Origin: an uncultured Actinomycetota bacterium
GTDB lineage: Bacteria; Actinomycetota; Actinomycetes; Propionibacteriales; Nocardioidaceae
Direction of reading: 5' to 3'
DNA: 64,000 nucleotides
Assembly (NCBI GenBank): GCA_963700955.1
Contig: CAVOZH010000005.1
Span: forward strand, 36,561-100,560
Each line of letters starts with the position of its first letter. Position 1 is the stretch's first letter. The notes beneath the pieces are model-generated. The model was not told the DNA's origin. It worked only from the letters and a program-made list of their open reading frames with translations, and did no database searches. Shown in pieces: positions 1 through 60,601 of the stretch. The position numbers were made by a program, and so were the translations under genes.

Positions 1-299
1 ACCTCCTCGCGCTGGTGGCGACGCAGCAGGTTGGCGGCGATGCCGTAGAGCCACGGCCTCACGTCGAGGCTCTCGGGACGGTACGTCGACCGCTTGCGGA
101 ACGCCGTCAAGAAGACCTCACTGAGGAGGTCGTCGGCCAGCTGACCGACGCGGCGACTCAGGTAGCGATGGATCTGGTCGCCGTGCCGCTCGAAGACCTC
201 CGCGAACGCCTCGGCCCGACTCAGCGAAGCCACGATCAGCTCGTGGTCCGTGGCCGAGGCGCTCAACGGTGGCGGCGCGTGTTCAGAAATGGCTGTCAT
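1..299 (-). CDS. ECF-type sigma-70 family RNA polymerase sigma factor, N-terminal part (gene runs off the left edge)
   Basis: Not in the ORF track because there is no stop in the window. Reverse complement from ATG at 299 reads MTAISEHAPPPLSASATDHELIVASLSRAEAFAEVFERHGDQIHRYLSRRVGQLADDLLSEVFLTAFRKRSTYRPESLDVRPWLYGIAANLLRRHQREE, a typical sigma-70 region 2 / ECF N-terminus. Confidence 0.8.
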   Translation of the reverse strand, partial: MTAISEHAPPPLSASATDHELIVASLSRAEAFAEVFERHGDQIHRYLSRRVGQLADDLLSEVFLTAFRKRSTYRPESLDVRPWLYGIAANLLRRHQREE

Positions 300-1061: not shown

Positions 1062-3044
1062 ATGGACGGCGGTGAGGCGACGATCGTGATCGTGGACGAT
1101 GTGTCCGAGGTCCGTCTGCTGATCAAGACACGGCTGCGGGTGTCGGGGCGGTTCCGCGTGGTCGGTGAGGGTGTCGACGGAGCTGACGCCGTCGAGCTGG
1201 CCCGCGAGCACAAGCCGGAGCTGATGTTGCTCGACGTCTCGATGCCGGGCGTGGACGGTCTGGAGGCGTTGCCCGAGGTCCTGGCCGCGTCGCCGGCCAC
1301 ACGCGTCGCGCTGTACAGCGGTTTCGAGGAGCAGGGACTGGTGGAGAGGGCCCACGAGCTCGGTGCCGCTGCGTTCATCGAGAAGTCCGCACCGGTCGAC
1401 TCCCTCATCGACCGCCTGCTGGTGGTGGCTGCCCAGGGCGTGGAGCGCGTCGGCGACGAGGTCTTGCGGGAGCAGGCAGTGGCTGCCACAGGCGACCAAC
1501 CCGGCACTCCAACCGCCGACCAGTCGGTCCTCGACGAGCACCTCGAGCGGTTCCGGGAGGTCTTCGAAGAGGCCGCCATCGGCATGGCGACGATGACGCT
1601 GACCGGCCACCTCGTGCGAGCGAACCGTGCCCTGGCCGCTCTCGTGCAGCGCCCGGGCGCCGGGCTCGTCGGTCTCTTCTACGGCGACCTCACAGATGGC
1701 CAGGGCGCGCAGGTCACAAGCGCCCTCGAGGACATCCGCCGGCGGCCCCTCGACGTCGTACAGCTGGAGCACGGCCTTGCCAGTGGCGTCGACGGTCGGC
1801 GAGTCCGCGCAACGCTGGCCCCCGTCCGTGACTCCGGTGGACGGGCTCTGTACCTGTTCCTCCAGGTACAAGACGTCACCGCGGAGAGGGCCGCTGTCGA
1901 GGAGCTGCGCAGGAGCGAGGAGCGTTTCCGGCTCCTGGTCGAGGCCGTTGAGGACTACGCCATCTTCATGCTCGACCCGACCGGACACGTCGTCAGCTGG
2001 AACGGCGGGGCGCAACGCAGCAAGGGCTACACCGCCGAGGAGATCATCGGCCAGCACTTCCGGGTGTTCTACCCGCCTGAGGTCCAGCAGCGGAAGCATC
2101 CTGAGAAGGAGCTGGAGATCGCGCTGCGCGAGGGGCACTACGAGGAGGAGGGGTGGCGCATCCGCAAGGACGGTTCGCGATTCTGGGCCAACGTCCTGAT
2201 CACCTCCGTCTTCAACGCGTCCGGCGAGCACATCGGCTTCGCCAAGGTCACGCGCGACACGACCGATCGGCGGCGTCTGGCAGAAGAGCGGGAACACGCC
2301 GCACAGGAGCTCGGGGCCGCCAACTCCAAGCTGGAGTCGCTCAACGAGGAGCTCCGGGCAGCGGCCCAGGACGAGGCGAAGTTCCTGGCTGTGACCGCGC
2401 ACGAGCTTCGCACGCCAGTCGGGGTGCTCGGCGGGTCGGCGGAGCTGCTCTCGCGTCACTGGCCCCAGCTCACCGACGAGGAGCGAACCGAGCTGTTCGA
2501 CTCGATGGCGACGAGCACGGGCCGGCTTCGGCGGTTGCTCGCGGATCTGCTGACGGCCTCACGGCTGCAGGCCAGCGCGCTCGAGGTGCGCCCCGAGCCA
2601 GTGCCGGTCGCCGACGTCGTGGCGGAGGCGATCGCAACCCTTCGGGGTACGCGGCCCGACGCCGAGATCCTCGCCGAGGTACCAGCCGATCTCACCGTTG
2701 TCGCCGACCGCGACCGTCTCGCCCAGGCTCTGGACAACCTGCTCACCAATGCCCTGCGCCATGGCGCCCCGCCCGTCCAGGTGGCGGCCCACGCCGACTC
2801 GGGCAGGGTGGTGATCCGGGTCAGTGACCAGGGGGCCGGTGTGTCCGTGTCCATGCAACCCAGGCTCTTCCAGCGGTTCGCCACAGGCCGTAGCAAGGGT
2901 GGGACGGGGTTGGGGCTCTTCATCGTCCGCGAGCTCGCGCGGGCGCAGGGCGGCGACGCCCTCTACGAGCCTGCGACGTCCGAGACGCCGGCAGGGGCCT
3001 TCGTCATCAGCCTGCCGCAAGCACCCTCGCCCTCAGCGGCCTAG
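1062..3044 (+). CDS. Hybrid sensor histidine kinase: N-terminal receiver, PAS, HisKA, HATPase_c
   Basis: 660-aa ORF. Receiver motifs IVIVDD...LLDVSMPGVDG. PAS-like HVVSWNGGAQRSKGYTAEEIIGQHF...RKDGSRFWANV. H-box AVTAHELRTPV. ATPase boxes NLLTNALRHG, DQGAGV, GGTGLGLFIV. Confidence 0.9.
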   Translation: MDGGEATIVIVDDVSEVRLLIKTRLRVSGRFRVVGEGVDGADAVELAREHKPELMLLDVSMPGVDGLEALPEVLAASPATRVALYSGFEEQGLVERAHELGAAAFIEKSAPVDSLIDRLLVVAAQGVERVGDEVLREQAVAATGDQPGTPTADQSVLDEHLERFREVFEEAAIGMATMTLTGHLVRANRALAALVQRPGAGLVGLFYGDLTDGQGAQVTSALEDIRRRPLDVVQLEHGLASGVDGRRVRATLAPVRDSGGRALYLFLQVQDVTAERAAVEELRRSEERFRLLVEAVEDYAIFMLDPTGHVVSWNGGAQRSKGYTAEEIIGQHFRVFYPPEVQQRKHPEKELEIALREGHYEEEGWRIRKDGSRFWANVLITSVFNASGEHIGFAKVTRDTTDRRRLAEEREHAAQELGAANSKLESLNEELRAAAQDEAKFLAVTAHELRTPVGVLGGSAELLSRHWPQLTDEERTELFDSMATSTGRLRRLLADLLTASRLQASALEVRPEPVPVADVVAEAIATLRGTRPDAEILAEVPADLTVVADRDRLAQALDNLLTNALRHGAPPVQVAAHADSGRVVIRVSDQGAGVSVSMQPRLFQRFATGRSKGGTGLGLFIVRELARAQGGDALYEPATSETPAGAFVISLPQAPSPSAA

Positions 3045-6051: not shown

Positions 6052-6561
6052 TCAGGCGCAGCAGGCACAGGCCGCGGACGGCTCTGCCTCGGGCTGGTCT
6101 GCCTCGGCGGAACTGGTGCAGCAGCCGGTGCTCGCCGGAGCCTGGTCGCCCTCGGCGAGTGTGAGGTCGGCGAGGGTCTTGCCCTCGAGCTCGGGCTGGG
6201 CGTCGGCGAGCACGACGTAGTTCTCCCACCGCTGCCCGTCGGGCCCGGTCACCCAGTGCTTGTCCTGGCGGGCGTAGCAACAGACGACGTCGCCCTCGGT
6301 GTCGAGGGTCAGCCCGGCGGCCTCGAGGCGGTTCGCCTGCTCCTCCACCTGCTCCATCGACTCCCGCTCGACACCGAGGTGGTTGAGGGTGCCGGTGGCC
6401 TCGGGGTTCTCGAAGAGGACCAGCTTCAGCGGCGGGTCGGCGACGGCGAAGTTCGCGTAGCCGGGTCGGCGCTTCGCGGGCTCGGTGTCGAAGAGAGTCG
6501 AGTAGAACTCGACGGCCTTGTCGATGTCGTCGACGTTGAGGGCGAGCTGAAGGCGGGACAT
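6052..6561 (-). CDS. ArsI/CadI-family glyoxalase-fold (VOC) protein with Cys-rich C-terminal tail
   Basis: Start moved to ATG 6561, with GGAGGA immediately upstream. MSRLQLALNV...PGYANFAV...PLKLVLFEN...NHLGVE...VVCCYARQDKHWVTGPDGQRWENYVV resembles ArsI C-As lyase / CadI, including the vicinal Cys pair. Tail is ...STGCCTSS...SAACACCA. Confidence 0.85.
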   Translation of the reverse strand: MSRLQLALNVDDIDKAVEFYSTLFDTEPAKRRPGYANFAVADPPLKLVLFENPEATGTLNHLGVERESMEQVEEQANRLEAAGLTLDTEGDVVCCYARQDKHWVTGPDGQRWENYVVLADAQPELEGKTLADLTLAEGDQAPASTGCCTSSAEADQPEAEPSAACACCA

Positions 6562-6620
6562 GTTTCCTCCTGGTGGGTGGACGTGGATGAAGTCGGGGTC
6601 GGGTGGCGCTGGTCGGCGGC

Positions 6621-6833
6621 TCAGGCGCAGCAGGCGTCGGGGACGGACTGCCAGGACGGCGTGGCCTGGTGGCGGAGTCGTGCGACGGCCCGGGAGACGG
6701 TGCGTGTCGCGCCGCCCGGGAACGGCCTGCTGCTGCGCTGAGTGGGCACGGCGAACCTGCGCAGGCCCTCGGCGGTGCGCAGCAGCTCGGCGTGGCGCTC
6801 GGTGGCCAGGGCGGCCATCACGGTGGGGTGCAT
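6621..6833 (-). CDS. Small hypothetical protein (70 aa) ending in ...DACCA
   Basis: In-frame ATG 6833 with GAGGAG 6 nt upstream. Third-position GC is high. MHPTVMAALATERHAELLRTAEG... resembles small actinobacterial ER-x-AEL-type peptides. It lies between the ArsR operators and the ArsI/CadI gene. Confidence 0.45.
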   Translation of the reverse strand: MHPTVMAALATERHAELLRTAEGLRRFAVPTQRSSRPFPGGATRTVSRAVARLRHQATPSWQSVPDACCA

Positions 6834-6877
6834 GAGGTGCTCCTCTTCGGCTTGCCGTGGGACCGTTCCCACGAGCG

Positions 6878-6959
6878 ACATAGACGTTCATCTATGTCAT
6901 GCCGAAACCGTGCCACGACGCCGGGTCCTCGTCAAGCATTGATATTCATCTATGTAGAT
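6878..6959. promoter_or_regulatory. Two palindromic candidate ArsR/SmtB operators in the AT-richer divergent intergenic region
   Basis: ACATAGA-n6-TCTATGT at 6878-6897 and ATCTA-TG-TAGAT at 6948-6959. Both share the 11-mer TTCATCTATGT (6887-6897, 6945-6955). They lie between the divergent arsR-like and small-ORF/ArsI genes. Confidence 0.4.
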
Positions 6960-7020
6960 CTTTTACTCCTGGCCGTCCATCAACCTCGAGCTGATAGACC
7001 GTTACCTATCTCGTGGCACC

Positions 7021-7398
7021 ATGGAGGTCATGCCGAAGCCACTGCCTCTGATCGAGCCCGTGCCGAGCGCGGCCGCCTGCTGTGCGCCGTTGATGGACGC
7101 GCCCCTGTCCGCCGAGCAGGCCGAGGAGCTCGCGGTGCGGCTCAAGGCGATCGCCGACCCCACTCGGCTACGGCTGCTGTCGCTGATGCTGGCCAGCCCG
7201 GGTCTCGAGGCATGCACCTGCGACCTGACCGAGCCGCTCGGGCTCACCCAGCCGACCGTGACCCACCACATGCGCACGCTGACGAAGGCGGGTCTGGTCG
7301 TGCCGGAGCGCCGGGTCGGCAACTTCACCTACTACCAGGTGGTGACCGATGCGCTGGCCGGCCTGGCCGGCGTGCTTGCTCCGGTCGCGGTTGCCTGA
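7021..7398 (+). CDS. arsR: ArsR/SmtB-family metal(loid)-responsive transcriptional repressor
   Basis: 125 aa. wHTH core LKAIADPTRLRLLSLM...CTCDLTEPLGLTQPTVTHHMRTLTKAGLV. N-terminal vicinal cysteines (AAACCAP) plus the CTC motif. Confidence 0.9.
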   Translation: MEVMPKPLPLIEPVPSAAACCAPLMDAPLSAEQAEELAVRLKAIADPTRLRLLSLMLASPGLEACTCDLTEPLGLTQPTVTHHMRTLTKAGLVVPERRVGNFTYYQVVTDALAGLAGVLAPVAVA

Positions 7399-7421
7399 GC
7401 GGAGCAGTCGCCTCCGCCGGA

Positions 7422-8093
7422 TCAGCTCGACGGCTCCGGCTCCACCGCCCTGCGTGCCAGGAAGTAGGCCTGCTGCGTCTTCTCGAACCTCCCGGCCGGC
7501 TCGCGGAGCAGCCTGCCGTGCACGAAGAACCCGGCCGTGCCCAACAGCTCGGCGACGTGGTCGGGAGACAGCCGGTAGTTGTCGAGGGACACCGCGTGGC
7601 CGTAGGCCTCGTCCCGGTGCACGCGCTGGTTATCACCGACCTGGAAGGCGAGCAGCAGGTGGCCGCCTGGGGCGAGCACCCGGTGGAACTCGGCGAACAC
7701 CCCCGGCAGCTGCCCCGGCGGGGTGTGGATGACGGAGTACCAGGCGAGGACGCCGGCGACACTGCCGTCCTTCAGGTCCAAGGCGGTGATCGAGCCCTCC
7801 TCGAACTGCAGGCCAGGGTGTCTGCGACGGGCCTCTGCCACCATCGCCGGCGACAGGTCGATGCCGAACGCCTCCAGCCCCAGTGAGCGCAGGTGTGCCG
7901 TCACCCGGCCGGGGCCGCAGCCGAGGTCGGCCACGGTTCCGCCGCCGTCCGCTTGCACGTGTTCGGCGAAAGCGGCAAGCGCGGCCCGCTGCAGTGGCTT
8001 CTCCGCGAGCTCGGTGGCGAGGATCTCTGCGTAGTCGGCGGCGACGGTGTCGTAGGCGACTCTAGTGGTGCGCAGGTAGGACGGCTCGGTCAT
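7422..8093 (-). CDS. Class I SAM-dependent methyltransferase
   Basis: Start moved to ATG 8093 (MTEPSYLRTT...). SAM-binding motif VADLGCGPGRVT and LAPGGHLLLAF. The rest of the 466-aa track ORF is Arg/Pro-rich junk. Confidence 0.85.
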   Translation of the reverse strand: MTEPSYLRTTRVAYDTVAADYAEILATELAEKPLQRAALAAFAEHVQADGGGTVADLGCGPGRVTAHLRSLGLEAFGIDLSPAMVAEARRRHPGLQFEEGSITALDLKDGSVAGVLAWYSVIHTPPGQLPGVFAEFHRVLAPGGHLLLAFQVGDNQRVHRDEAYGHAVSLDNYRLSPDHVAELLGTAGFFVHGRLLREPAGRFEKTQQAYFLARRAVEPEPSS

Positions 8094-8149
8094 GCCGAGG
8101 ACCGTAGTGCCTGTCTCCGGTGCCGGGCCGGAGGCGCTCGGCGTTTCCG

Positions 8150-9094
8150 TCAGCCCTCGAACGGCCTGTTGGGGATGCGCTTCAGAACGGCGGGGTAGCG
8201 CGCCACGATCTGCTCGGACCGGGCCTCCTCGAGCGCGTGGAGGCGACCGAAGGTGAAGCCGTTCTCGTTCGCCAGATATGCCTGGGCGCCGAGCTCGCGC
8301 AAGGTACGGCGGGCGACCACCGTGTCCTGATGCTCGCCGAGAAGCTCTTGAAGGTCCTTGGCGCAGGAGGCGAGTCGCTCCGCGCGGCGACCGAGGACGG
8401 GGGTCGCCGACTCGGCGCCGTACCGCAGTCGCTTGGCGGCCTTCCGGGTCTCGTGCAGACCCTCGTCCCGCTCTGCCGAGCCGGTCGCCACCGCGACCCT
8501 TCGCGCTCGCCGTCTGAGGCGCTCGAGGTCCCGGGTGAGGAGGCGGGGAAGCTGTTTCCGCGCATCCCCAGCGGCGACCTCGGCGAACGGCGGATCGGCG
8601 ACGAACGAGTCGAGAACGTGGAGCAGCCGGCAGTAGCGGTCGTCGTCGAGGGCCTCGAGCGCCTGTCGCCTGCCGGCCTGGTGGCGGGCGGACATCTCGA
8701 TGTGGATGCGGCGGGTGACCGGCCCCATCACAAGCTCCGCAGGCTCCCCCCGGACCAGGACCTCGAGACGCTCGTGAATCACCTGCGTGTCCCGCGCCGC
8801 GGCCAGCTCCTCGCCGAGCCACCTGAGCTCACCCCGAAGCTCGTCGGTCGCCCCTGGGAGCAGGACCGGCCGGTAGGTCGCGAGCACCGACCGGAGCCGA
8901 CGCGCCGCGATCCGCATCTTGTGGACCGCGCTGTCGGCATCCTGACGCAGGCGCTGCTCCTGGTTCCGCAGCTCGGACAGCTGGGCTGCCAGCTCGTGCT
9001 GGAGCACCGCGCCGACGGACGGCTCGTCATCCTTGGTCGCACGCACGCCCGCGTTCACATCTTCGATCGTGTCAGCGCCCCACCCGGCGAGCAA
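8150..9094 (-). CDS. CHAD domain-containing protein
   Basis: 314-aa ORF; TTG at 9094, start uncertain. Motifs AVHKMRIAARRLRSVLATYRP and LHETRKAAKRLRYG are CHAD hallmarks. Confidence 0.8.
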   Translation of the reverse strand: MLAGWGADTIEDVNAGVRATKDDEPSVGAVLQHELAAQLSELRNQEQRLRQDADSAVHKMRIAARRLRSVLATYRPVLLPGATDELRGELRWLGEELAAARDTQVIHERLEVLVRGEPAELVMGPVTRRIHIEMSARHQAGRRQALEALDDDRYCRLLHVLDSFVADPPFAEVAAGDARKQLPRLLTRDLERLRRRARRVAVATGSAERDEGLHETRKAAKRLRYGAESATPVLGRRAERLASCAKDLQELLGEHQDTVVARRTLRELGAQAYLANENGFTFGRLHALEEARSEQIVARYPAVLKRIPNRPFEG

Positions 9095-17696: not shown

Positions 17697-18659
17697 TCAG
17701 GGGGCCTGGATGAGGATCTCCTCGCCTACCCGCAGCGACCGGTAGCGGTCGCCGAACGCCTCCCCGAACATGGAGAGGGTCCACGGAGTGCTGTCGTGGC
17801 CCGAGAGCGCCACGAGGCCCGGTCCCCGCTCGTCGATGGTCTCGATGACGGCGTGCACGTCCGCCTCGGTGATCGGACGCCACGGCCAGTTCGGGGTGCC
17901 CAGCACGGCCTGCGGCACGAGCGGCGTACCGATCGGGTGCACGGGCAGGTGCAGCCCGCCGATCACCGCGTGGACCGGCGCGTCGACGACCTGTTCGGCG
18001 GCCGCGAGCATGACCTCGATCTCGGGGTGACCGCAGCCGGTGACCAGCACCAACCCGCGCCCACGGACGTTGACGACCAGCGCTTGCTCGGCAACCGGCC
18101 CCAGCCAGAACAGCATGCGAGGCATCGGTGGGAGGACGGCGACACCCGGGCCGAGGACCCTGGCTTCCTCGACCAGACACAGGTCGGCGCGCGGGTGGCT
18201 CATCTCGGTGGGCACGAACGCCGGCAGTGACCGCGGCACCGACTGTCCGGTCCCGAACGTGAAGGTACGCCGGAGCTGCGACCGCAGCCCGCCGACATGG
18301 TCGAGGTGCAGGTGCGAGATGACGAGGCAGTCGAGGTCGTCGAGCGCGACGCCGAGGGCGCGGACGTTCGCCTCGAGGGCGGTCTCGTCGCCGCCGGTGC
18401 CGAGCCCGCAGTCGAACAGCAGGGTCAGGTCGTCGGCGCGCACGAGGTAGGACACGCCAGGTTCGCCGTGCAGGCCCGGACCACGCGTCAGCCGCTCGAC
18501 GACCGGGAGGATCGACAGTGACTCCACCTCTCCGAGGCTCGACAGTCTGCTGTCGAGCTCGGCGACGGTGTGCCGGCTCGCCTTGTCACGGCCGGAGACG
18601 TACCGCCCGGCCAGCGCAGCAGCGACGGACGCTGCGAGGGCAAGACCTTGCGAGCGCAT
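17697..18659 (-). CDS. MBL-fold metallo-hydrolase
   Basis: Start moved to ATG 18659 with GGAGG upstream. Motif VISHLHLDHVGGL and TGCGHPE. Confidence 0.8.
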   Translation of the reverse strand: MRSQGLALAASVAAALAGRYVSGRDKASRHTVAELDSRLSSLGEVESLSILPVVERLTRGPGLHGEPGVSYLVRADDLTLLFDCGLGTGGDETALEANVRALGVALDDLDCLVISHLHLDHVGGLRSQLRRTFTFGTGQSVPRSLPAFVPTEMSHPRADLCLVEEARVLGPGVAVLPPMPRMLFWLGPVAEQALVVNVRGRGLVLVTGCGHPEIEVMLAAAEQVVDAPVHAVIGGLHLPVHPIGTPLVPQAVLGTPNWPWRPITEADVHAVIETIDERGPGLVALSGHDSTPWTLSMFGEAFGDRYRSLRVGEEILIQAP

Positions 18660-18993
18660 GGTGCACCTCCAGATCCAGGCTCCGCCCGGGTATGGATCCG
18701 GAGCCAGGGACGAAGGTCCCTCGCACACCGCTGGCGCTCCGCCTGTGAGACCGGCCAGGCGCGGGCACGGTTCGACCCGCGGCGGCCAGCGGCCGGAGAG
18801 CTGAGACCCGTGCACGGCCCCGGCGCTGCGAGTCGCCGCGACGCTCGCGGGTGGCGCGCAGTTCCTCCCCGCGGCTGTCGGCCATCAGACCGGCCATCCC
18901 ATCGCCGACGTACCGGAAGGTGACGCGCAGGCTGGCCCGGGGGACCGAAGACACTTTGTGGAGCCGAGGAGAATCGGCCGGGGAGGAGGGATA

Positions 18994-19467
18994 GTGATCG
19001 AACTTCGGGACACTGTCGCCATCGACGTCGCGCCGGGGGCGGTCTGGAGCTGGCTCGAGACCCTGCCAGACCACTATCCCGAGTGGCATCCGGATCACTC
19101 GGATGCGCGCTGGGTGCGCGGAAGCGCCTTCGTGCCCGGGGCGGTCATGGAGATCGGGGAATCGCTGCATGGAAAGCCGCATCGACTGCGGATGAAGGTC
19201 ACGGAGGTCGAGCCCGGCCGACGGTTGCGCTACCGGGTCTTCCCTGGGGTGAGCGGGGAGTTCGTCGTGGATGCCGTCGATGGCGGCTCGGATTTCACCG
19301 CCGTGATCGCGATGGGGGTTTCGGTACCGGTCATGGGCACGGCCGTCGACTGGTTACTGCGCCGCACCTTGGCAGGACGGCTCGAGGCGATGGCGCGCCA
19401 CCAGGCTGAAGAGGGGACGAACCTGAAGGCCTTGTTGGAGAGCCACTCAGGTCGACTCAGCCCTTGA
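18994..19467 (+). CDS. SRPBCC (START/polyketide-cyclase-like) family protein
   Basis: GTG 18994 preceded by GGGGAGGAGGG; the track start 18958 is also possible. ...[24 protein letters not shown]... is typical SRPBCC. Confidence 0.7.
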
Positions 19468-20878
19468 CGACCCCGAGGGGGATCAGCCGGGCGACCTTCC
19501 GGGCGAGCCCGGCCCGGTCGCTGATGTCGGCGACGGCGTCGATGTCCTTGTAGGCCTCCGGCTTCTCCTCGGCGAGGCCCCGCCACGAGCTCCCCCGCAC
19601 GAGGACGCCCTGGGTCTCGAGCTGTTCCCGGAGCGCCCTGCCGCTGGTGTGACGGGCGGCCTGGTGCCTGCTCTGTACCCGGCCGGCACCGTGGGCTGTC
19701 GAGAAGAACGCAGGGTTCTCTGCCACCCCTGCCAAGACGTATGACGCGGTGCCCATCGTGCCCGGTAGGAGCACGGGCTGGCCGACGTCAGCCAGATCGG
19801 CCGGCAGGTCCAGGTGGTGGGGTGGCAATGACAGGGTCGCGCCTTTCCGGTGCACGCACAGGGTGCGGGGCCGACCGTCCACCGGATGCACCTCGATCTT
19901 GGCGAGGTTGTGCGAGACGTCGTAGACGAGGTCGAGCGTCGTACCTGCCTCCTCCTCGAAGACTCGCCGTACGGCCTCGGTGAGCAGCTGACGGTTGGCT
20001 CGGCCGTAGTTCGCGGCTGCGGCCATCGCCGCAAGGTATGCCTGCCCCTCAGGAGAGCGGACCGGCGTGCACGCCAGCTGTCGATCGGGCACGCGGATGC
20101 CGTACCGGCCCATGGCACGCTCCATCTCCCGGACGTGGTCGGTGCAGATCTGGTGGCCGAGGCCCCGGGAGCCGCAGTGGATCATCACGCACACCGCGTC
20201 CTGCCGCAGACCCATCCGCGCGGCCGTGCTCGCGTCGAACACCCGGTCGACGGTCTGCACCTCGAGGAAGTGGTTCCCCGAGCCGAGGCTGCCGAGCTGG
20301 CCGAGACCTCGCTCGACCGCTCGCTCGCTGACGGCTCGCCAGTCCGCTCCCTGCATCACGCCGTCGTCCTCGCAGCGCTCGAGGTCCCGGGCGACTCCAT
20401 GTCCACGCGAGACCGCGAAACGAGCGCCGCCCTCGAGCACCCGCTGCAGCTCGGCCCGGTCCGCGAGCGGCCACACGCCCCCTCGGCCCACGCCACGCGG
20501 GACGGCATGGTCGAGCCGGTCCATCACCGCAGGGAGCCGAGGCATCAGGTCCCCACGGGTCAGGTCGGGTGCGACGAGAAGCCGAACGCCGCAAGAGATG
20601 TCGAAGCCGACTCCGCCGGGTGACACCACCCCCTGGTCGTCGATGTCCGTCGCCGCCACACCGCCGATGGGGAAGCCGTAGCCCCAGTGGACGTCTGGCA
20701 TGGCGTAGGAGGCCCTGACGATGCCTGGGAGCGTGGCCACGTTCACCACCTGGGACAGCGACTTGTCGCCCTGCTCCTCCGGCATCAGCGACTTCGACAC
20801 GTAGACGATCCCGGGCACCCGCATCGCGCCCTCGCGCTCGATCCGGAACCGGTAGGGGGTCTCCGCGACGACTCTCAT
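19457..20878 (-). CDS. rtcB: RNA-splicing ligase RtcB (3'-phosphate/5'-hydroxyl RNA ligase)
   Basis: Start moved to ATG 20878 ([11 protein letters not shown]...). Motifs [54 protein letters not shown]. The 3' end overlaps the convergent SRPBCC gene by 11 nt. Confidence 0.9.
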
Positions 20879-20947
20879 GACTGCCCACATGTGTGCGCTG
20901 GACCCGTCGGACGTGCTGTGCTTGCCGTACGGCGATCGGAGCGGATC

Positions 20948-21370
20948 ATGAACGAAGGCGCGTCCGGCCACAGGTCGGTGCCACACACGGCAGACCTCCG
21001 CATCGAGGCATGGGCTCCCACCCGCGAAGAGTGCATTGCGCAGGCGGTGCTCGGGACCGTCGAGAGCTTCCTCGACACGTCCTCCGTGCACCCCGAGAGC
21101 ACCCGCCGACGCCAGCTCGCCGCGCACAGCGACGAGGATCTGCTCGTCGCCGTGCTGGAGGAGGTCGTGTACTTCCTGGACACGGCCGGCGAGGTTCCCG
21201 TCGACCTCGAGCTCGAACCCGTGGAGGGAGGCGTCGACGTGGAGTTCGCGATGGTCGACGCGAGCAAGCTTCCCCAGGTGGGTGCGGTCCCGAAGGCGGT
21301 GTCGCTGCACGAGCTCTCGCTCGCACCCGGACCATCCGGATGGTGGTGCTCGGTGACGCTCGACGTGTGA
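20948..21370 (+). CDS. Archease (RtcB activator/chaperone family)
   Basis: Start moved to ATG 20948. [29 protein letters not shown] ... [12 protein letters not shown]...WWCSVTLDV matches the archease HTAD and C-terminal motifs. Divergent from rtcB with a 69-bp spacer. Confidence 0.85.
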
Positions 21371-21421
21371 AGTGGCCCGACCCTCCGTGACCTGCACGGG
21401 GCTGCCTGGCGCATGCGAGGA

Positions 21422-21537
21422 CCTGCGAGGCGATTTCCCTTCGCCGGTATTGTCCGGATCAGGTTCCTAGGGGTCGCCTTCCAGTCTTTCAACCTTCTGG
21501 CCTCTCAGCCTTTCGGCTCCCTCGCCCGTCTCGCAGG
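21422..21537 (-). promoter_or_regulatory. TPP (THI-box) riboswitch aptamer with no cognate downstream gene
   Basis: The minus-strand RNA CCUGCGAG-ACGGGCGAGGGAGCCGAAAGGCUGAGAGG-CCAGAAGGUUGAAAGACUGG-AAGGCGACCCCUAGGAACCUGAUCCGGACAAUACCGGCGAAGGGAAAUCGC-CUCGCAGG contains all conserved THI-element blocks and an 8-bp closing helix. It aligns block-for-block with the canonical element at 56678-56765. Confidence 0.8.
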
Positions 21538-21625
21538 CCACTTTCAAAGGTGCGCGTCGGAGGCGGCTCGCACCAGGGACCAAGGTCCCGTATCTCGAAT
21601 ACTCCGTGCGAGAGGCCGGATGGCG

Positions 21626-22075
21626 TCAGGCCGGAGAGGGAGCATCCACGTCCGGTGAGACCGCCTCGGGGAGCACGACGTGGTACGACGTGCCCGGGAT
21701 GCTGCGGCAGCGGGCGTACTCATCAGGGCGAGGTGGCCAGTCGCGGTAGGGCAGAGAAGTGAGGCGGAACCCCACCTTCCACACGATCACGAGGCCCCAG
21801 ATCGGCTGCAGCAGGAAGAAGAGGGCGTCGCGCTTCCGGAAGCTCACTCTGCGATAGGCAGGCAGCAACAGCAGGCCCGGAAGACCCATCGCCAAGAGGT
21901 GGACCGAGTCGGCCGTCAGCTGGTCGCGGCGCATCGTGTGGGCCACATCCCGCAGGACGAGGAAGACCGCGAGGGTGAGCACCAGGAAGACGAAGGCGAC
22001 CAGGTGGCAAAGCCAGCGAGGCCTCTGTTGCGGGAGGTGGGCGCCCGCGGTCTCTGACAGTTGAGTGGCAGGCAC
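21626..22075 (-). CDS. Hypothetical membrane protein (3-4 TM)
   Basis: 149-aa ORF with GC-rich third positions and hydrophobic segments LCHLVAFVFLVLTLAVFLVL, LLAMGLPGLLLLPA, FFLLQPIWGLVIVW. No recognisable family. Confidence 0.6.
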   Translation of the reverse strand: MPATQLSETAGAHLPQQRPRWLCHLVAFVFLVLTLAVFLVLRDVAHTMRRDQLTADSVHLLAMGLPGLLLLPAYRRVSFRKRDALFFLLQPIWGLVIVWKVGFRLTSLPYRDWPPRPDEYARCRSIPGTSYHVVLPEAVSPDVDAPSPA

Positions 22076-56587: not shown

Positions 56588-56677
56588 GGTGCCTCCTCGG
56601 GCGTGGTCGGTGCTGTCCGGAGGCTACCCGGACCGCACGCGTCCGCTGCGGGCAGCCGGTGTAGCCTGACCGCAGAA

Positions 56678-56765
56678 CGACAGGGGAGCGCCGACCGGGC
56701 GCTGAGAGTGCGGAACGGCCGCAGACCCTCGAACCTGATCCGGCTCATACCGGCGAAGGAAGTCG
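56678..56765 (+). promoter_or_regulatory. TPP (THI-box) riboswitch controlling thiBPQ
   Basis: CGAC-AGGGGAGCGCCGACCGGGCGCUGAGAGUGCGGAACGGCCGCAGACCCUCGAACCUGAUCCGGCUCAUACCGGCGAAGGAA-GUCG. It is followed by hairpin GATCGCA-tgcg-TGCGATC (56772-56789). CUCCC (56792-56796) can sequester the SD GGGAG (56808-56812) before ATG 56819. Confidence 0.9.
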
Positions 56766-56818
56766 AGTCTCGATCGCATGCGTGCGATCCCCTCCCTGAA
56801 CCTTCGTGGGAGAAATGC

Positions 56819-57937
56819 ATGTCCATCAAGTCCTTGGCAGCGCACCGCAGCGGGCGCGTCGCCGTGATCGCTGCTCTGTCCCTGAGCCTGTCGCTGGGGC
56901 TCAACGCCTGCTCGCTCGGAGGTACCTCCAGCGAGTCGACCGACTCCGGCGACGCCTCCGGCGCCCCGGCGAAGAAGGAGGTCGTGCTCGCGACCCACGA
57001 GTCGTGGGCGGTGCCGAAGGAGGTGCTCGCGGAGTTCACCCGCGAGACCGGCTACCACCTGAAGGTCGAGGCCGCCGGGGACGCAGGTGCGCTGACCAAC
57101 AAGCTCGTGCTGACCAAGGGCTCCCCGACGGCCGACGTCGCCTACGGGGTCGACAACACCTTCGCCTCGCGCGCTGTGGGCGAGGGCGTCTTCGCGGACT
57201 ACGCGCCGTCGAAGGCGCCGGCCTCGGCGGCCGGCTTCGAGATGCCTGACAAGGCCGGCGCCTCCGCTCTCACACCGGTCGACTTCGGCGACGTGTGCGT
57301 GAACATCGACGACGCCTGGTTCGCGAAGAAGGGCGTCAAGCCGCCCCGCACCCTCGACGACCTGACCGACCCGGCGTACAAGAACCTCTTCGTCACCCCG
57401 GGCGCCTCGACCTCCTCGCCGGGGCTCGCCTTCATGCTCGCGACCATCGCGAAGTACGGCGAGGACGGCTGGCAGAAGTACTGGGAGCAGCTCATGGCCA
57501 ACGGCACCCGGATCACCTCCGGCTGGACCGACGCCTACACCGTCGACTTCACCGCCGGTGGCGGCAACGGCGACCGGCCGATCGTGCTGTCCTACGACTC
57601 GTCGCCGCCGTTCACGATCCCCAAGGGTGGCGACAAGCCGACGACGAGCGCGCTGCTCGACACGTGCTACCGGCAGGTGGAGTACGCGGGCGTGCTCAAG
57701 GGGGCGTCCAACCCCGAGGGCGCGAAGGCGCTGGTGGACTTCATGCAGACGCCGACCTTCCAGGAGGCGCTCCCCGAGAACATGTACGTGTTCCCGGTCG
57801 ACGACTCCGTGAAGCTGCCCGACGTCTGGGCGAAGTGGGCGAAGACCCCGGAGAAGCCGTTCAACGTCGAGCCGGCGAAGGTCGCCGAGAACCGTGACAA
57901 GTGGCTGACCGCCTGGGGGGAGATCACCACCAGGTGA
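56819..57937 (+). CDS. thiB: Thiamine ABC transporter substrate-binding lipoprotein
   Basis: Start moved to ATG 56819. Lipobox LSLGLNACS. ThiB/TbpA-like sequence. Riboswitch immediately upstream. Confidence 0.85.
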   Translation: MSIKSLAAHRSGRVAVIAALSLSLSLGLNACSLGGTSSESTDSGDASGAPAKKEVVLATHESWAVPKEVLAEFTRETGYHLKVEAAGDAGALTNKLVLTKGSPTADVAYGVDNTFASRAVGEGVFADYAPSKAPASAAGFEMPDKAGASALTPVDFGDVCVNIDDAWFAKKGVKPPRTLDDLTDPAYKNLFVTPGASTSSPGLAFMLATIAKYGEDGWQKYWEQLMANGTRITSGWTDAYTVDFTAGGGNGDRPIVLSYDSSPPFTIPKGGDKPTTSALLDTCYRQVEYAGVLKGASNPEGAKALVDFMQTPTFQEALPENMYVFPVDDSVKLPDVWAKWAKTPEKPFNVEPAKVAENRDKWLTAWGEITTR

Positions 57938-59586
57938 GAGGCCAGTGGGGAACGCGCCTCGGGACCGTCGCATTGGCGGTGGTCCCGGTCGCGTTCCTCT
58001 GCGTCTTCTTCCTGCTGCCCCTGACGGGGATGCTCGCACAGGGGTTCTGGGTCGACGGCTCCCTGGATCTGAGCGGCCTGGCCGAGACGCTGTCGCGCCC
58101 GCGAGTGCACAGAGTGCTGTGGTTCACCGCGTGGTCGTCGCTCACCGCCACCGCGGTCACCACGGCCCTCGGGGTGCCGTTGGCCTACGCCTTGTACCGG
58201 CTCGAGTTCCCGGGTCGGCAGGCCCTCCGCGCGCTCGTGGTGATGCCGTTCGTGCTGCCCACCGTCGTGGTCGGGGTCGCCTTCCGGACGCTCCTCGCTC
58301 CCGCTGGCCCGCTCGGGTTCCTCCGCCTCGACGGGACCGCGGTCGCGATCCTCGCCGCGATGATCTTCTTCAACCTCGCCGTCGTGGTGCGCACGGTGGG
58401 TGGCCTGTGGGAGAGCCTCGACCACCGGCGTGAGGACGCCGCCGCGGCGCTCGGTGCCTCGCCCTGGCAGGTGCTGCGCACCGTCACGCTCCCGGCGCTG
58501 AAGCCGGGGATCGTCTCGGCGGCGACGGTCGTGTTCCTCTTCTGCTCCACGGCGTTCGGGGTCGTGCTGACCCTCGGCGGCCTGCGCTACGGCACGGTCG
58601 AGACCGAGATCTACATCCTCACCACGCAGTTCCTCGACCTCCGCGCGGCAGCGGTGCTGTCCGTCGTGCAGCTGCTCGCGATCGTCGTGCTCCTGTTCCT
58701 CGCCGGACGCACCCGCGGTCGGCGGTCGCAGGCCCTGGAGAGGACCGGCGGCCGGAAGTCGCGCACGCGTCCGGGCCGGAGGGACGCCCCGGCGCTGGCG
58801 GTCACCGCCGCGACGGTGGTCTTCCTGGCCGTGCCCCTGCTGACGCTGGTGGTGCGGTCGCTGCGCACAAGCAGTGGCTGGGGGCTCGACAACTACCGGA
58901 GCCTGGGTACGACGGGCAGCGGGACCGCCCTCCTCGTGCCCGTGTGGACCGCCCTGGACAACTCGCTGCGCATCGCCGTGGACGCCACCGTGCTCGCGTT
59001 GAGCCTCGGCCTCGCGGTCGCCTTCCTCGTCTCGCGTCCCGCACGCGGACGGGCGGAGCGGCGCGGCAGGGCGTTCCTGGACGGGCTGTTCATGCTGCCG
59101 CTCGGCGTCTCCGCGGTGACCATCGGCTTCGGCTTCCTCATCACGCTCGACCAGCCACCGCTCGACCTGCGCTCCTCCCCGCTGCTCGTGCCCATCGCGC
59201 AGGCGATGGTTGCCCTGCCGCTCGTCGTGCGCACCCTCGTCCCGGTGCTGCGCTCGATCGACCCGCGGCAGCGTCAGGCCGCGGCCACCTTGGGCGCCTC
59301 CCCGTTGCGGGCGCTTCTCGTGGTCGACGTTCCGGCCGCGTGGCGTTCCGTCCTGGCCGCGGCCGGCCTCGCGTTCGCGGTGTCCCTGGGGGAGTTCGGC
59401 GCGACCAGCTTCCTCGCGCGGCCCGACCGTCCGACGCTGCCGGTGGTGATCTACCAGCTGATCTCCCGGCCGGGGGCGGAGAACTTCGGCACGGCGCTGG
59501 CGGCGTCCGTCGTCCTGGCCCTGGTCACGGTGACCGTGATGGGGGCCGTCGAGCGACTGCGCGTCGGGTCGATGGGATCGTTCTGA
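57934..59586 (+). CDS. thiP: Thiamine/iron-type ABC transporter permease (duplicated)
   Basis: GTG 57934 overlaps the thiB stop (GTGA). About 12 TM, two EAA-like loops (EDAAAALGASPWQVLRTVTLP; RQAAATLGASPLRAL). Confidence 0.85.
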   Translation: MRGQWGTRLGTVALAVVPVAFLCVFFLLPLTGMLAQGFWVDGSLDLSGLAETLSRPRVHRVLWFTAWSSLTATAVTTALGVPLAYALYRLEFPGRQALRALVVMPFVLPTVVVGVAFRTLLAPAGPLGFLRLDGTAVAILAAMIFFNLAVVVRTVGGLWESLDHRREDAAAALGASPWQVLRTVTLPALKPGIVSAATVVFLFCSTAFGVVLTLGGLRYGTVETEIYILTTQFLDLRAAAVLSVVQLLAIVVLLFLAGRTRGRRSQALERTGGRKSRTRPGRRDAPALAVTAATVVFLAVPLLTLVVRSLRTSSGWGLDNYRSLGTTGSGTALLVPVWTALDNSLRIAVDATVLALSLGLAVAFLVSRPARGRAERRGRAFLDGLFMLPLGVSAVTIGFGFLITLDQPPLDLRSSPLLVPIAQAMVALPLVVRTLVPVLRSIDPRQRQAAATLGASPLRALLVVDVPAAWRSVLAAAGLAFAVSLGEFGATSFLARPDRPTLPVVIYQLISRPGAENFGTALAASVVLALVTVTVMGAVERLRVGSMGSF

Positions 59587-59587
59587 C

Positions 59588-60601
59588 ATGCTCACCGTCC
59601 GCGACCTGACCGTCCGCTTCGACGGCCTCACGGCCGTGGAGGACGTGTCGCTCGACCTCCCGACCGGTGAGGTGCTCGCGGTGCTGGGGCCGTCGGGATG
59701 CGGGAAGTCCACGCTCCTGCGCGGGATCGCCGGTCTCGAGATGCTCAGCTCCGGCGCCGTCGCCTTCGACGGTCAGGACCTCGCGGGCGTGCCGACCCAC
59801 AAACGACGGTTCGCGCTGATGTTCCAGGACGGCCAGCTCTTCCCGCACCAGAGCGTCGCGGCCAACGTCGGCTACCCGCTGCGGCTTCGCGGCACCTCGC
59901 GCGGCGTGGTGTCGACTCGGGTCGGGGAGCTGCTGGAGCTCGTCGGCCTGCCCGGCCACGGCGACCGGCTCCCCGCCGAGCTCTCGGGAGGTGAGCGCCA
60001 GCGGGTGGCCCTGGCACGCTCCCTGGCGGCCGATCCGCGGCTCCTTCTGCTCGACGAGCCGCTCTCGGCGCTCGACCGCGAGCTGCGCGAGCGGCTCGCC
60101 GGCGACCTGCGCGACATCCTCACCTCGGCCGGGACGACCGCGATCCTGGTCACCCACGACCAGGACGAGGTGTGGACCGTCGCGGACCGGGTCGCCGTCA
60201 TGCAGGCGGGCCGGATCCTCCAGGCAGGCACGTTGGACGATGTGTGGCGGGCGCCTGCGAGCGACGCGGCCGCGCTGCTGCTCGGCTACCCGACGATCCT
60301 GCGGGGTGCGGCCGCGCAGCTCCTCGCTCGGGCGGGGGAGCACCACGACGTGGACTCGGTCGGCGCGATCGCCCTGCGACGCTCCGCCCTGCGCGTCGAT
60401 CCCGCGGGGCGGCTGGGCGGGCGCGTGGTCGCCGCGACGGTGAGCCCCGACGTCGTACGGCTCCGGGTGCTGGTCGAAGGGCTGGGGGAGATGCACGCCG
60501 TGGCCCGCCAGGATGCCGATGTCCGGATCGACCACGAGGTCTGCCTCGCGGTCGACCTGGCGCGCACCGCCGTACTTCCCGCGCCCTCTCCTGCGCGCTG
60601 A
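59588..60601 (+). CDS. thiQ: ABC transporter ATP-binding protein
   Basis: Walker A GPSGCGKST, signature LSGGERQRVALAR, Walker B LLLLDEP. Confidence 0.85.
   Translation: MLTVRDLTVRFDGLTAVEDVSLDLPTGEVLAVLGPSGCGKSTLLRGIAGLEMLSSGAVAFDGQDLAGVPTHKRRFALMFQDGQLFPHQSVAANVGYPLRLRGTSRGVVSTRVGELLELVGLPGHGDRLPAELSGGERQRVALARSLAADPRLLLLDEPLSALDRELRERLAGDLRDILTSAGTTAILVTHDQDEVWTVADRVAVMQAGRILQAGTLDDVWRAPASDAAALLLGYPTILRGAAAQLLARAGEHHDVDSVGAIALRRSALRVDPAGRLGGRVVAATVSPDVVRLRVLVEGLGEMHAVARQDADVRIDHEVCLAVDLARTAVLPAPSPAR

Follow-up and report, generated by a model that had tools for sequence, protein, structure and literature searches.

Introduction

No riboswitch class is more widespread than that of thiamine pyrophosphate (TPP), and its members are regarded as devoted to the control of thiamine genes. 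In this study, we analyzed a TPP-class aptamer that lies on the minus strand at positions 21420–21539 of a 64,000-nucleotide stretch of DNA from an uncultured actinomycete of the family Nocardioidaceae (assembly GCA_963700955.1, contig CAVOZH010000005.1, positions 36,561 to 100,560; hereafter, the window) and that points toward the genes for archease and the RNA ligase RtcB. An initial annotation, made from the letters alone, had described this element as an orphan TPP riboswitch that might give rise to an antisense RNA. Comparative sequence analysis firmly argues that the element belongs to a distinct subclass of TPP-class RNAs, which is unlinked to thiamine genes and has a predicted promoter of the dormancy (DosR) type.

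The canonical TPP riboswitch (RF00059) shares with this subclass the P1–P5 architecture and the pocket blocks CUGAGA, ACCUGAUC and GCGNAGGGA, and some of its members also possess the optional P3a and a short P3. The subclass differs from it in scoring below the cutoff (36.6–50.0 against 54.3 bits), in having 14 pairs in P1 rather than ~4–6, and in carrying an ACAAU L5 loop and a P2 that opens with an A·C or A–U pair. Moreover, its members never stand upstream of thiamine synthesis or transport genes, appear to have a DosR-type promoter of their own and, in the lineage of the window, show no recognizable expression platform. Among the variants and relatives of the TPP aptamer, the thiamin-sensing P4–P5 mutants (PMC5473149) and the hydroxymethylpyrimidine pyrophosphate (HMP-PP; thiS) riboswitch (PMC6478431) can, like the subclass, coexist with canonical copies in one genome. 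In those RNAs the pyrophosphate or pyrimidine sensor is altered or missing and thiamine genes are still controlled, whereas in the subclass the pocket is intact and the context is non-thiamine; the subclass is distinguished from the thiamin-sensing mutants in particular because its P4–P5 is intact.

Riboswitch-gated antisense or non-coding RNAs are established for the S-box element of Clostridium ubiG, the B12 elements of Listeria pocR (AspocR) and EutX/Rli55, and the trans-acting SreA and SreB. Members of the subclass likewise have no coding target behind the aptamer and face a convergent gene (archease in the window, an ABC-F or methyltransferase-like gene elsewhere), and they may act through a non-coding transcript. 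However, a ligand-controlled terminator has been demonstrated for ubiG, AspocR, EutX/Rli55 and SreA/SreB, while none is visible in the window lineage. To our knowledge, no TPP example of a riboswitch-gated antisense RNA has been described, and a literature search for a connection of TPP riboswitches to RtcB, archease, baeRF, hibernation or DosR returned nothing relevant.

Ribosome and RNA repair modules centered on RtcB include PrfH–RtcB and Rsr–Y RNA–RtcB. In mycobacteria, DosR controls the S30AE ribosome-stabilizing protein RafH (PMC3390679). The partners of the subclass are similar to RafH and to the components of the repair modules in that they comprise an HPF/S30AE fusion, the release-factor-like baeRF, archease and rtcB, together with a structured non-coding RNA beside rtcB; however, those systems are not known to include an RNA that binds a metabolite, and, unlike in Rsr–Y RNA–RtcB, there is no Ro/Rsr gene here and the aptamer RNA does not resemble Y RNA. 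In Mycobacterium tuberculosis, the small RNA (sRNA) DrrS is made from a DosR-dependent promoter as a longer precursor that is processed to a very stable RNA protected by its terminal structure (PMC5360333). DrrS is, like the unit proposed here, a stand-alone member of a dormancy regulon, but it is not an aptamer, no sequence relationship to the subclass RNA is expected, and processing and stability are presumed for the latter.

Results

The element in the window has a TPP-class aptamer fold

The minus strand of 21422–21537 reads as the initial annotation gave it, and all the conserved TPP blocks listed there are readable (GGGAGCC..GGCUGAGA, ACCCC and ACCUGAUCCGGACAAUACCGGCGAAGGGA). A permissive local scan with RF00059, the check that the annotation had proposed, matched the full model (positions 1–105 of 105) to the minus strand at 21419–21533 with 43.9 bits (E = 5.8e-7), but this score is below the Rfam gathering score of 54.3 bits; the deficit arises in P1, P2 and P3 and from a long insert in P3a. 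The blocks CUGAGA (J3-2), ACCUGAU (J4-5) and GCGNAGGGA, whose ligand-binding role is established by crystal structures of the TPP riboswitch, are present both by direct reading and in the cmscan alignment.

The whole element (21420–21539; 43.9 bits with RF00059 and 129 bits with the class model R1, see below) is closed by a P1 of 14 pairs (21539–21526 with 21433–21420), inside which follow P2, a short P3 (GCC-GAAA-GGC), CUGAGA, P3a, and P4/P5 with an ACAAU L5 loop. An outer helix had been recognized before, but with 8 bp rather than 14. Across 14 homologues, 93.5% of the cells of the P1–P5 fold pair, compared with 23–54% in slid-partner controls, and in this alignment of low diversity (effective sequence number 1.09) compensatory changes are found at three pairs in P1 and P3a along with many G–C/G–U switches. 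For instance, the inner P3a stem GGUU/GACU of the window is replaced by GGUU/GAUC in two homologous loci (L012 and L047), with both pairs kept. Folding energy does not tell the two strands of the window apart (−48.0 vs −47.1 kcal/mol). Taken together, the block content and pairing pattern firmly indicate a genuine TPP-class aptamer fold.

A long-P1 subclass unlinked to thiamine genes

Metagenome contigs were scanned with a DNA pattern that required a short P3 and the TPP core and left P3a free. The 22 loci returned fall into three sets, designated as group A, group B and ordinary TPP elements. Group A resembles the window; its 5′ arm is GCCUGCGAGACGGGCGAGGGAGCC and its 14-bp P1 is GGCCUGCGAGACGG/UCGCCUCGCAGGUC. 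In L017, L023, L024 and L027, the aptamer of this group is followed by a convergent ABC-F ATPase gene, into whose 3′ end it points; it stands upstream of a class-I-aldolase-like gene in L014 and of a YtfJ-like gene in L025. In group B (5′ arm UUUGCGAGAUGG.AGAGGGAGCC; P1 GGUUUGCGAGAUGG/CCAUCUCGUGGGCC, also 14 bp), the aptamer precedes, on the same strand, a gene for a release-factor-like protein of baeRF family 10 and an HPF/S30AE fusion gene; in L019 and L033 these two are followed by a small open reading frame (ORF), archease and rtcB. The ordinary elements found by the same pattern precede thiG or genes of substrate-binding protein (SBP) transporters (L021/L034 and L020/L030).

A search of annotated genomes added a copy in Embleya sp. 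NBC_00888. This aptamer has its own terminator and faces a convergent methyltransferase-like ORF, with no gene on its own strand in the following >2 kb; rtcB, archease, baeRF and HPF genes were not found within 25 kb on either side. The Embleya record (NZ_CP108785.1; L036/L049) is labelled as a plasmid, yet it is 5.7 Mb long and linear and probably represents a chromosome. PLSDB lists only 8 annotated features for it, and the missing annotation limited the context analysis there. A BLAST search of the plasmid collection with the group B aptamer gave no match.

The subclass is set apart from ordinary TPP elements by score and by sequence. With RF00059, all 16 subclass loci score 36.6–50.0 bits and the thi-linked controls 69.1–77.1 bits, whereas a class model built from 14 subclass sequences gives 76 bits to the independent Embleya copy and 44–63 bits to ordinary elements. 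P2 opens with A in place of G (A–U in L014 and L026, A·C elsewhere in the subclass), and the L5 loop reads ACAAU versus NUAAU in ordinary elements. No thiamine gene is contained in any of the 12 readable subclass contexts, in agreement with the initial view that the aptamer is an orphan as to thiamine genes. These signatures firmly support the long-P1 RNAs as a distinct, unannotated subclass that is, as judged from gene context, unlinked to thiamine genes.

The canonical TPP riboswitch that had also been noted in the window was confirmed at 56672–56778 on the plus strand (RF00059, 69.7 bits); it is the sole TPP report at the gathering threshold in the window and is followed by SBP, permease and ATP-binding cassette (ABC) ATPase genes at 56810–60601 (plus strand). 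An ordinary TPP element and a subclass element coexist in this one genome.

A predicted DosR-type promoter precedes the aptamer

When the upstream sequences were anchored on P1, a palindrome was found at a fixed position. In the window, this predicted operator is a DosR/DevR-type box, GGGACCTTGGTCCCT, at 21575–21589 (minus strand), which has one mismatch to GGGACTTNNGNCCCT, the stringent DosR consensus of M. smegmatis (PMC6448022); the consensus of M. tuberculosis is TTSGGGACTWWAGTCCCSAA (PMC2275270). The box of group B, GGGACTTTCGGCCCT, matches the stringent consensus exactly. What had been read as a second hairpin (21576–21589) corresponds to this box. Among the 20 loci whose upstream sequence is long enough, 16 have a box with at most one mismatch 52–54 nt ahead of the aptamer core; the exceptions are L032, whose box has two mismatches, and L012, L025 and Embleya, which deviate. 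The 64-kb window contains two boxes with at most one mismatch, against 0.34 expected.

A putative core promoter (21547–21575, minus strand) consists of a −35-like TGGTGC (21575–21570), a 17-nt spacer and a −10-like CACCTT (21552–21547). Of 10 distinct loci, 6 have a hexamer of the form nAnnnT 22–25 nt past the box (22 nt in the window; background, 0.086 per site), and P1 starts 4–7 nt after it (7 nt after CACCTT in the window). The Embleya copy has a promoter-like TTGCTG-N17-TATCCT. A scan of the window for consensus sigma-70 promoters found nothing. On the basis of the box–hexamer–P1 geometry, we infer that the box is centered near −43 and that transcription starts at the base of P1; an activating box centered near −43 is the rule in mycobacterial promoters. 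The initial remark that no obvious promoter is present thus gives way to a DosR-type box and a −10-like hexamer at fixed spacing upstream of the aptamer.

Boxes also accompany other genes around the aptamer. In the window, a second DosR-type box, GGGACCTTCGTCCCT, lies at 18706–18720 (minus strand), 45 nt upstream of the likely ATG (18659) of a metallo-β-lactamase (MBL)-fold hydrolase gene (17697–18659, minus strand; Pfam Lactamase_B), and appears to mark the neighborhood as a regulon island; a GAGCCT hexamer is located 23 nt after this box. The region of L017, L023, L024 and L027 is a predicted dense regulon island: within 3 kb it has a related box, GGGACCTTCGGCCC, before a 70-aa ORF, and two more boxes that each carry no more than one mismatch. 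This ORF (e.g., L027 661–944) lies just upstream of the aptamer unit, has no Pfam match and is preceded by the hexamer TAGCGT. L047 has a box before a ferredoxin-like (Fer4) gene that follows rtcB, and a two-mismatch box in its rtcB–archease intergenic region. In group B, baeRF is separated from the aptamer by a box that is followed at 23 nt by CACGAT or CATGAT and, 4–6 nt further, by GTG, which looks like a leaderless promoter, and a box of the same geometry precedes the YtfJ-like gene of L025. Since baeRF in group B and the YtfJ-like gene in L025 are preceded by boxes and apparent promoters of their own, and since Embleya and L035 carry their own terminators, Embleya having no same-strand gene in its >2 kb downstream, we firmly regard the aptamer as a separate unit with its own predicted promoter and DosR-type box, within putative islands of box-bearing genes.

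The aptamer is conserved beside archease and rtcB

In the window, archease (20948–21370, plus strand; Pfam Archease, 94.6 bits; coding-type codon-position GC) is convergent with the aptamer unit, and rtcB, encoding the RNA 3′-phosphate/5′-OH ligase (19457–20881, minus strand; Pfam RtcB, 536 bits), lies on the strand of the aptamer, ~541 nt downstream of it. A membrane-protein ORF (21626–22075, minus strand) is located upstream, with its stop codon 88 nt before the aptamer. The Pfam scores bear out the gene calls of the initial annotation, and codon-position GC is non-coding in the minus-strand ORFs over archease, which had been called shadows. The distances to the archease stop codon (51 nt) and to rtcB were also correct. 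As a candidate for a hidden coding target after the aptamer, we considered an ATG 13 nt past P1 and rejected it: it opens the archease shadow frame (GC by codon position, 0.50/0.73/0.79), in L012 the ORF breaks off at 70 aa, and L023, L024 and L027 have ATA at the position of the ATG.

The aptamer lies antisense, 21–51 nt past the archease stop codon and pointing at rtcB, in the window, L010/L011 (96% identical), L012 (82%) and L047 (78%), all of which have a divergent rtcB/archease pair. The synteny comparison proposed in the initial annotation yielded four independent loci that keep the order aptamer–archease–rtcB, while the upstream neighbors all differ. From ~85 nt upstream of the aptamer through its 3′ end (~200 nt), the window and L010 have only 2 differences, and the sequence upstream of this box–aptamer block is unalignable. 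No aptamer was found at the archease homologues that are unpaired with rtcB (L037–L046 and L048) or at the rtcB/archease loci L013, L001 and L002, and an archease-based genome scan returned two loci, neither of which carries one. In the aptamer-less L013, a box is situated within the rtcB–archease intergenic region; unlike L013, the 66-nt intergenic region of the window has no DosR-type box. L013 also contains, at 6483–8862, archease followed by convergent TIR_2 and DUF4231/SLATT_1 genes of the defence type.

The placement bears on two origins that the initial annotation had offered as alternatives. A relic left after loss of a thiamine gene fits poorly with the same placement in four independent loci whose upstream neighbors differ. 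Likewise, the RNA cannot depend on the upstream gene and ride on the 3′ untranslated region (UTR) of the membrane-protein gene, because the upstream gene is divergent in L012 and L047, and a box and −10-like hexamer at fixed spacing precede the aptamer. A link to the membrane protein was also sought among 13 homologues, which occur in other contexts (dprA-X-xerC, sortase and methyltransferase) with no TPP core nearby. From this comparison of loci, we firmly conclude that the aptamer is neither a relic nor a 3′-UTR element.

The rtcB–archease pair has a motif of its own. It lies at 20911–20922 of the window, reads AGCACAGCACGT on the minus strand, and is shared by the window, L010 and Sinomonas mesophila (L001), whose rtcB–archease intergenic regions are 66–105 nt long, with a near-match, GCAGAGCACGT, in L012. 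It may be an operator or promoter of the divergent pair.

The link to rtcB is not exclusive: the same RNA occurs beside the ABC-F, aldolase-like and YtfJ-like genes and alone in Embleya. The group B operons of L019 (2102–6476) and L033 (1973–7130) comprise genes for baeRF family 10, the HPF/S30AE fusion, a 70-aa ORF, archease and rtcB, and look like a ribosome rescue, hibernation and repair module. The fusion protein in these operons has ~220 aa of extra N-terminal region with a weak SnoaL-like match at most.

The downstream region shows no recognizable ligand-switchable platform in the window lineage

The spacer between P1 and the archease stop codon (21371–21419, minus strand; 49 nt) varies in sequence between loci. 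A terminator scan of the window spacer found no terminator-like site, and the tail folds no better than shuffled sequences (z = +1.3), as is also the case for L010, L012 and L047. Neither a ligand-controlled terminator nor a conserved alternative pairing was found between aptamer and archease in these four loci. The window and L010 have the CCUCGCA duplication, which had been proposed to pair alternatively with the 5′ helix strand, whereas L012, L047, L014, L017 and L025 do not conserve it. A second GCAGGUC copy in the window spacer was rejected as an antiterminator, as a 15-nt deletion removes it in the 96%-identical L010. Terminator-grade tails are found solely in Embleya (a stem followed by UUUUGU) and L035 (z = −3.9, U-rich tail). 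A CACGAG farther downstream is complementary to the 3′ strand of P1 (CUCGUG) in group B and forms a hairpin with it, and in L035 this hairpin is the terminator; P1 and terminator are mutually exclusive there because the 3′ strand of P1 overlaps the hairpin.

By orientation, read-through would be antisense to archease in the four loci, to the ABC-F gene in the L017 group and to the methyltransferase-like ORF in Embleya. Given that the window spacer contains no terminator, a transcript from P1 should enter archease in antisense. The antisense RNA of the initial annotation is thus physically likely as far as entry into archease is concerned, but its gating by TPP finds no recognizable ligand-switchable platform.

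Other features were observed after P1. A semi-conserved motif lies 5–12 nt past P1 in groups A and B: most of group A has GGUCC-N3-5-(G)CAUG, while group B and Embleya have GCC-UUCAUCC, and the motif of the window and L010 is palindromic (CGCAUGCG). In L014, a 19-nt direct tandem duplication (GTCCCTGCATGTCTACGGC twice; ~127–165, plus strand) directly follows P1. L035 contains, after its first aptamer and terminator, a second, partial TPP-like element (1508–1621, plus strand; 32 bits with Rfam and 43 bits with the class model) that keeps P3a, P4, P5 and the 3′ strand of P1 and is missing the GGGAGCC..CUGAGA half.

Discussion

We propose, with a probability of about 0.5, that the element is a dormancy-induced TPP-class RNA whose transcript spills antisense into archease and is trimmed to a P1-closed aptamer that serves as a dormancy-specific sensor or buffer. 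A dormancy-type response regulator would turn the promoter on under hypoxia or redox stress, with the start at the base of P1, and the primary transcript would cross the terminator-less 49-nt spacer into the 3′ part of archease and end within the gene through Rho, polymerase collision or processing. Trimming would then leave the P1-closed aptamer, which resists nucleases, in a maturation similar to that of the DosR-regulated sRNA DrrS from its longer precursor. The final product of ~120 nt would bind TPP or a very close relative and act as a dormancy-specific cofactor sensor or buffer. The adjacency to archease and rtcB would mainly reflect shared regulon membership, and the antisense transcription over archease would be a by-product or a secondary effect that is controlled by the promoter and not gated by TPP. 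The aptamer unit recurs in clusters with DosR-type boxes that contain rtcB/archease, baeRF and the HPF/S30AE fusion, the YtfJ-like gene or the MBL-fold hydrolase, and this regulon theme fits mycobacterial biology, since DosR controls both RafH (PMC3390679) and DrrS (PMC5360333).

Several points weigh against this proposal. For the RNA itself, start site, 3′ end and stability are predictions, and the notion of a short RNA depends on assumed processing because the window lineage has no terminator. The covariation comes from two or three lineages owing to the low sequence diversity, and the conservation of the core within the class is partly ascertainment, as the pattern by which most members were found fixed the canonical TPP core. 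A search of the 64-kb window with a DosR query sequence found no gene for a DosR-like regulator, and we know of no precedent for a trans or buffering function of a TPP aptamer. Three further observations would fit a role in cis: the adjacency to archease and rtcB is kept in four loci while the other flank changes, the rtcB gene of the window has no DosR-type box while that of the aptamer-less L013 has one, and the hairpin that follows P1 in group B, a true terminator in L035, shares sequence with the 3′ strand of P1 in the manner of a riboswitch platform.

In an extension of the initial idea, the aptamer is a cis riboswitch and TPP sets how far the DosR-driven transcript runs, antisense to archease and as a long leader into rtcB, in an arrangement like an excludon. 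If true, rtcB and archease would be set by two inputs, a dormancy signal and the cofactor status. We consider such a switch the main rival of our proposal, possible but less likely. Besides the conserved order of aptamer, opposite-facing archease and rtcB amid varying upstream neighbors, the absence of a terminator ahead of archease and the box that the window lacks and L013 has, it is favored by the operons of L019 and L033, in which the aptamer is on the same strand as baeRF, HPF, archease and rtcB and from which inversion of archease alone gives the layout of the window. The mutually exclusive P1 and terminator of L035 and the CACGAG pairing of group B also point in this direction, and the 5′ half of the Embleya terminator could, by reading of the sequence, pair with the 5′ strand of the aptamer as well. 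However, the window lineage has neither a conserved alternative pairing nor a terminator, its CCUCGCA duplication is not conserved, and a P1 of 14 bp should form with or without ligand. A leader into rtcB would comprise 540 nt of untranslated, Rho-exposed RNA, including a C-rich, G-poor stretch, while rtcB and archease have their own conserved intergenic motif (AGCACAGCACGT) and in group B a box and apparent promoter that belong to the operon stand behind the aptamer; in other members, the gene that the aptamer faces is convergent and unrelated, or there is none. A relic of a lost or displaced thiamine gene, or a 3′-UTR element of the upstream membrane-protein gene, would account for the lack of a thiamine gene or credible ORF downstream and for a position 88 nt past the stop codon of the membrane gene, but both are largely refuted already and we regard them as highly improbable. 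The near-identity of the box-to-aptamer block in the window and L010 (2 differences in ~200 nt), with the alignment breaking upstream, the intact core with pair-preserving changes (GGUU/GACU to GGUU/GAUC), the occurrence of the RNA in ~16 loci with a thi gene in none, the membrane-protein homologues that lack an aptamer in dprA-X-xerC contexts and the divergent upstream genes of L012 and L047 all speak against them.

A shift in ligand is compatible with either mode of action, stand-alone RNA or cis switch. In this case, the TPP-like fold would bind thiamine triphosphate (ThTP), adenosine thiamine triphosphate (AThTP), or a thiamine precursor or breakdown product, and would report a stress metabolite. 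In E. coli, starvation leads to a build-up of both ThTP and AThTP. Every member of the subclass has C for U at the second L5 position, A for G at the opening of P2 and an extended P1, all score below the Rfam cutoff, none is linked to thiamine genes, and TPP-class variants of altered specificity are known from the P4–P5 mutants that sense thiamin (PMC5473149). Nevertheless, a shift appears unlikely: judged by the crystal structures, every nucleotide in contact with the pyrimidine ring or the pyrophosphate is retained (CUGAGA, ACCUGAUC...GCG and, next to J2-3, the G of GGGG), the changes that mark the class are outside the pocket, and the sole independent member with a core change is Embleya (CCUGACCC). 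A more far-reaching scheme would combine these elements into a DosR-type-driven dormancy riboswitch or riboregulator that reads TPP or a thiamine-derived stress nucleotide and couples cofactor or energy status to baeRF, HPF, archease and RtcB; at this locus, a ligand-gated transcript would silence archease in antisense and feed rtcB. We hold this scheme to be rather unlikely as a whole. If it holds, it would provide the first antisense switch of the TPP class and, for an RtcB system in bacteria without RtcR, the first input from a small molecule.

The subclass ties a TPP-class RNA to a predicted dormancy-type promoter among RNA-repair and ribosome-hibernation genes instead of thiamine genes, and standard annotation misses it because its scores fall below the Rfam cutoff. 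The finding also suggests that GC-rich intergenic "hairpins" may be operators, and it offers a testable explanation for rtcB/archease regulation in bacteria without the RtcR/sigma-54 system. If the RNA does not bind TPP, it would represent a ligand-shifted variant class; if it does, cofactor status would be connected to the actinomycete dormancy program, which is of medical interest in mycobacteria. The subclass thus hints at an unrecognized link from cofactor sensing to bacterial dormancy.

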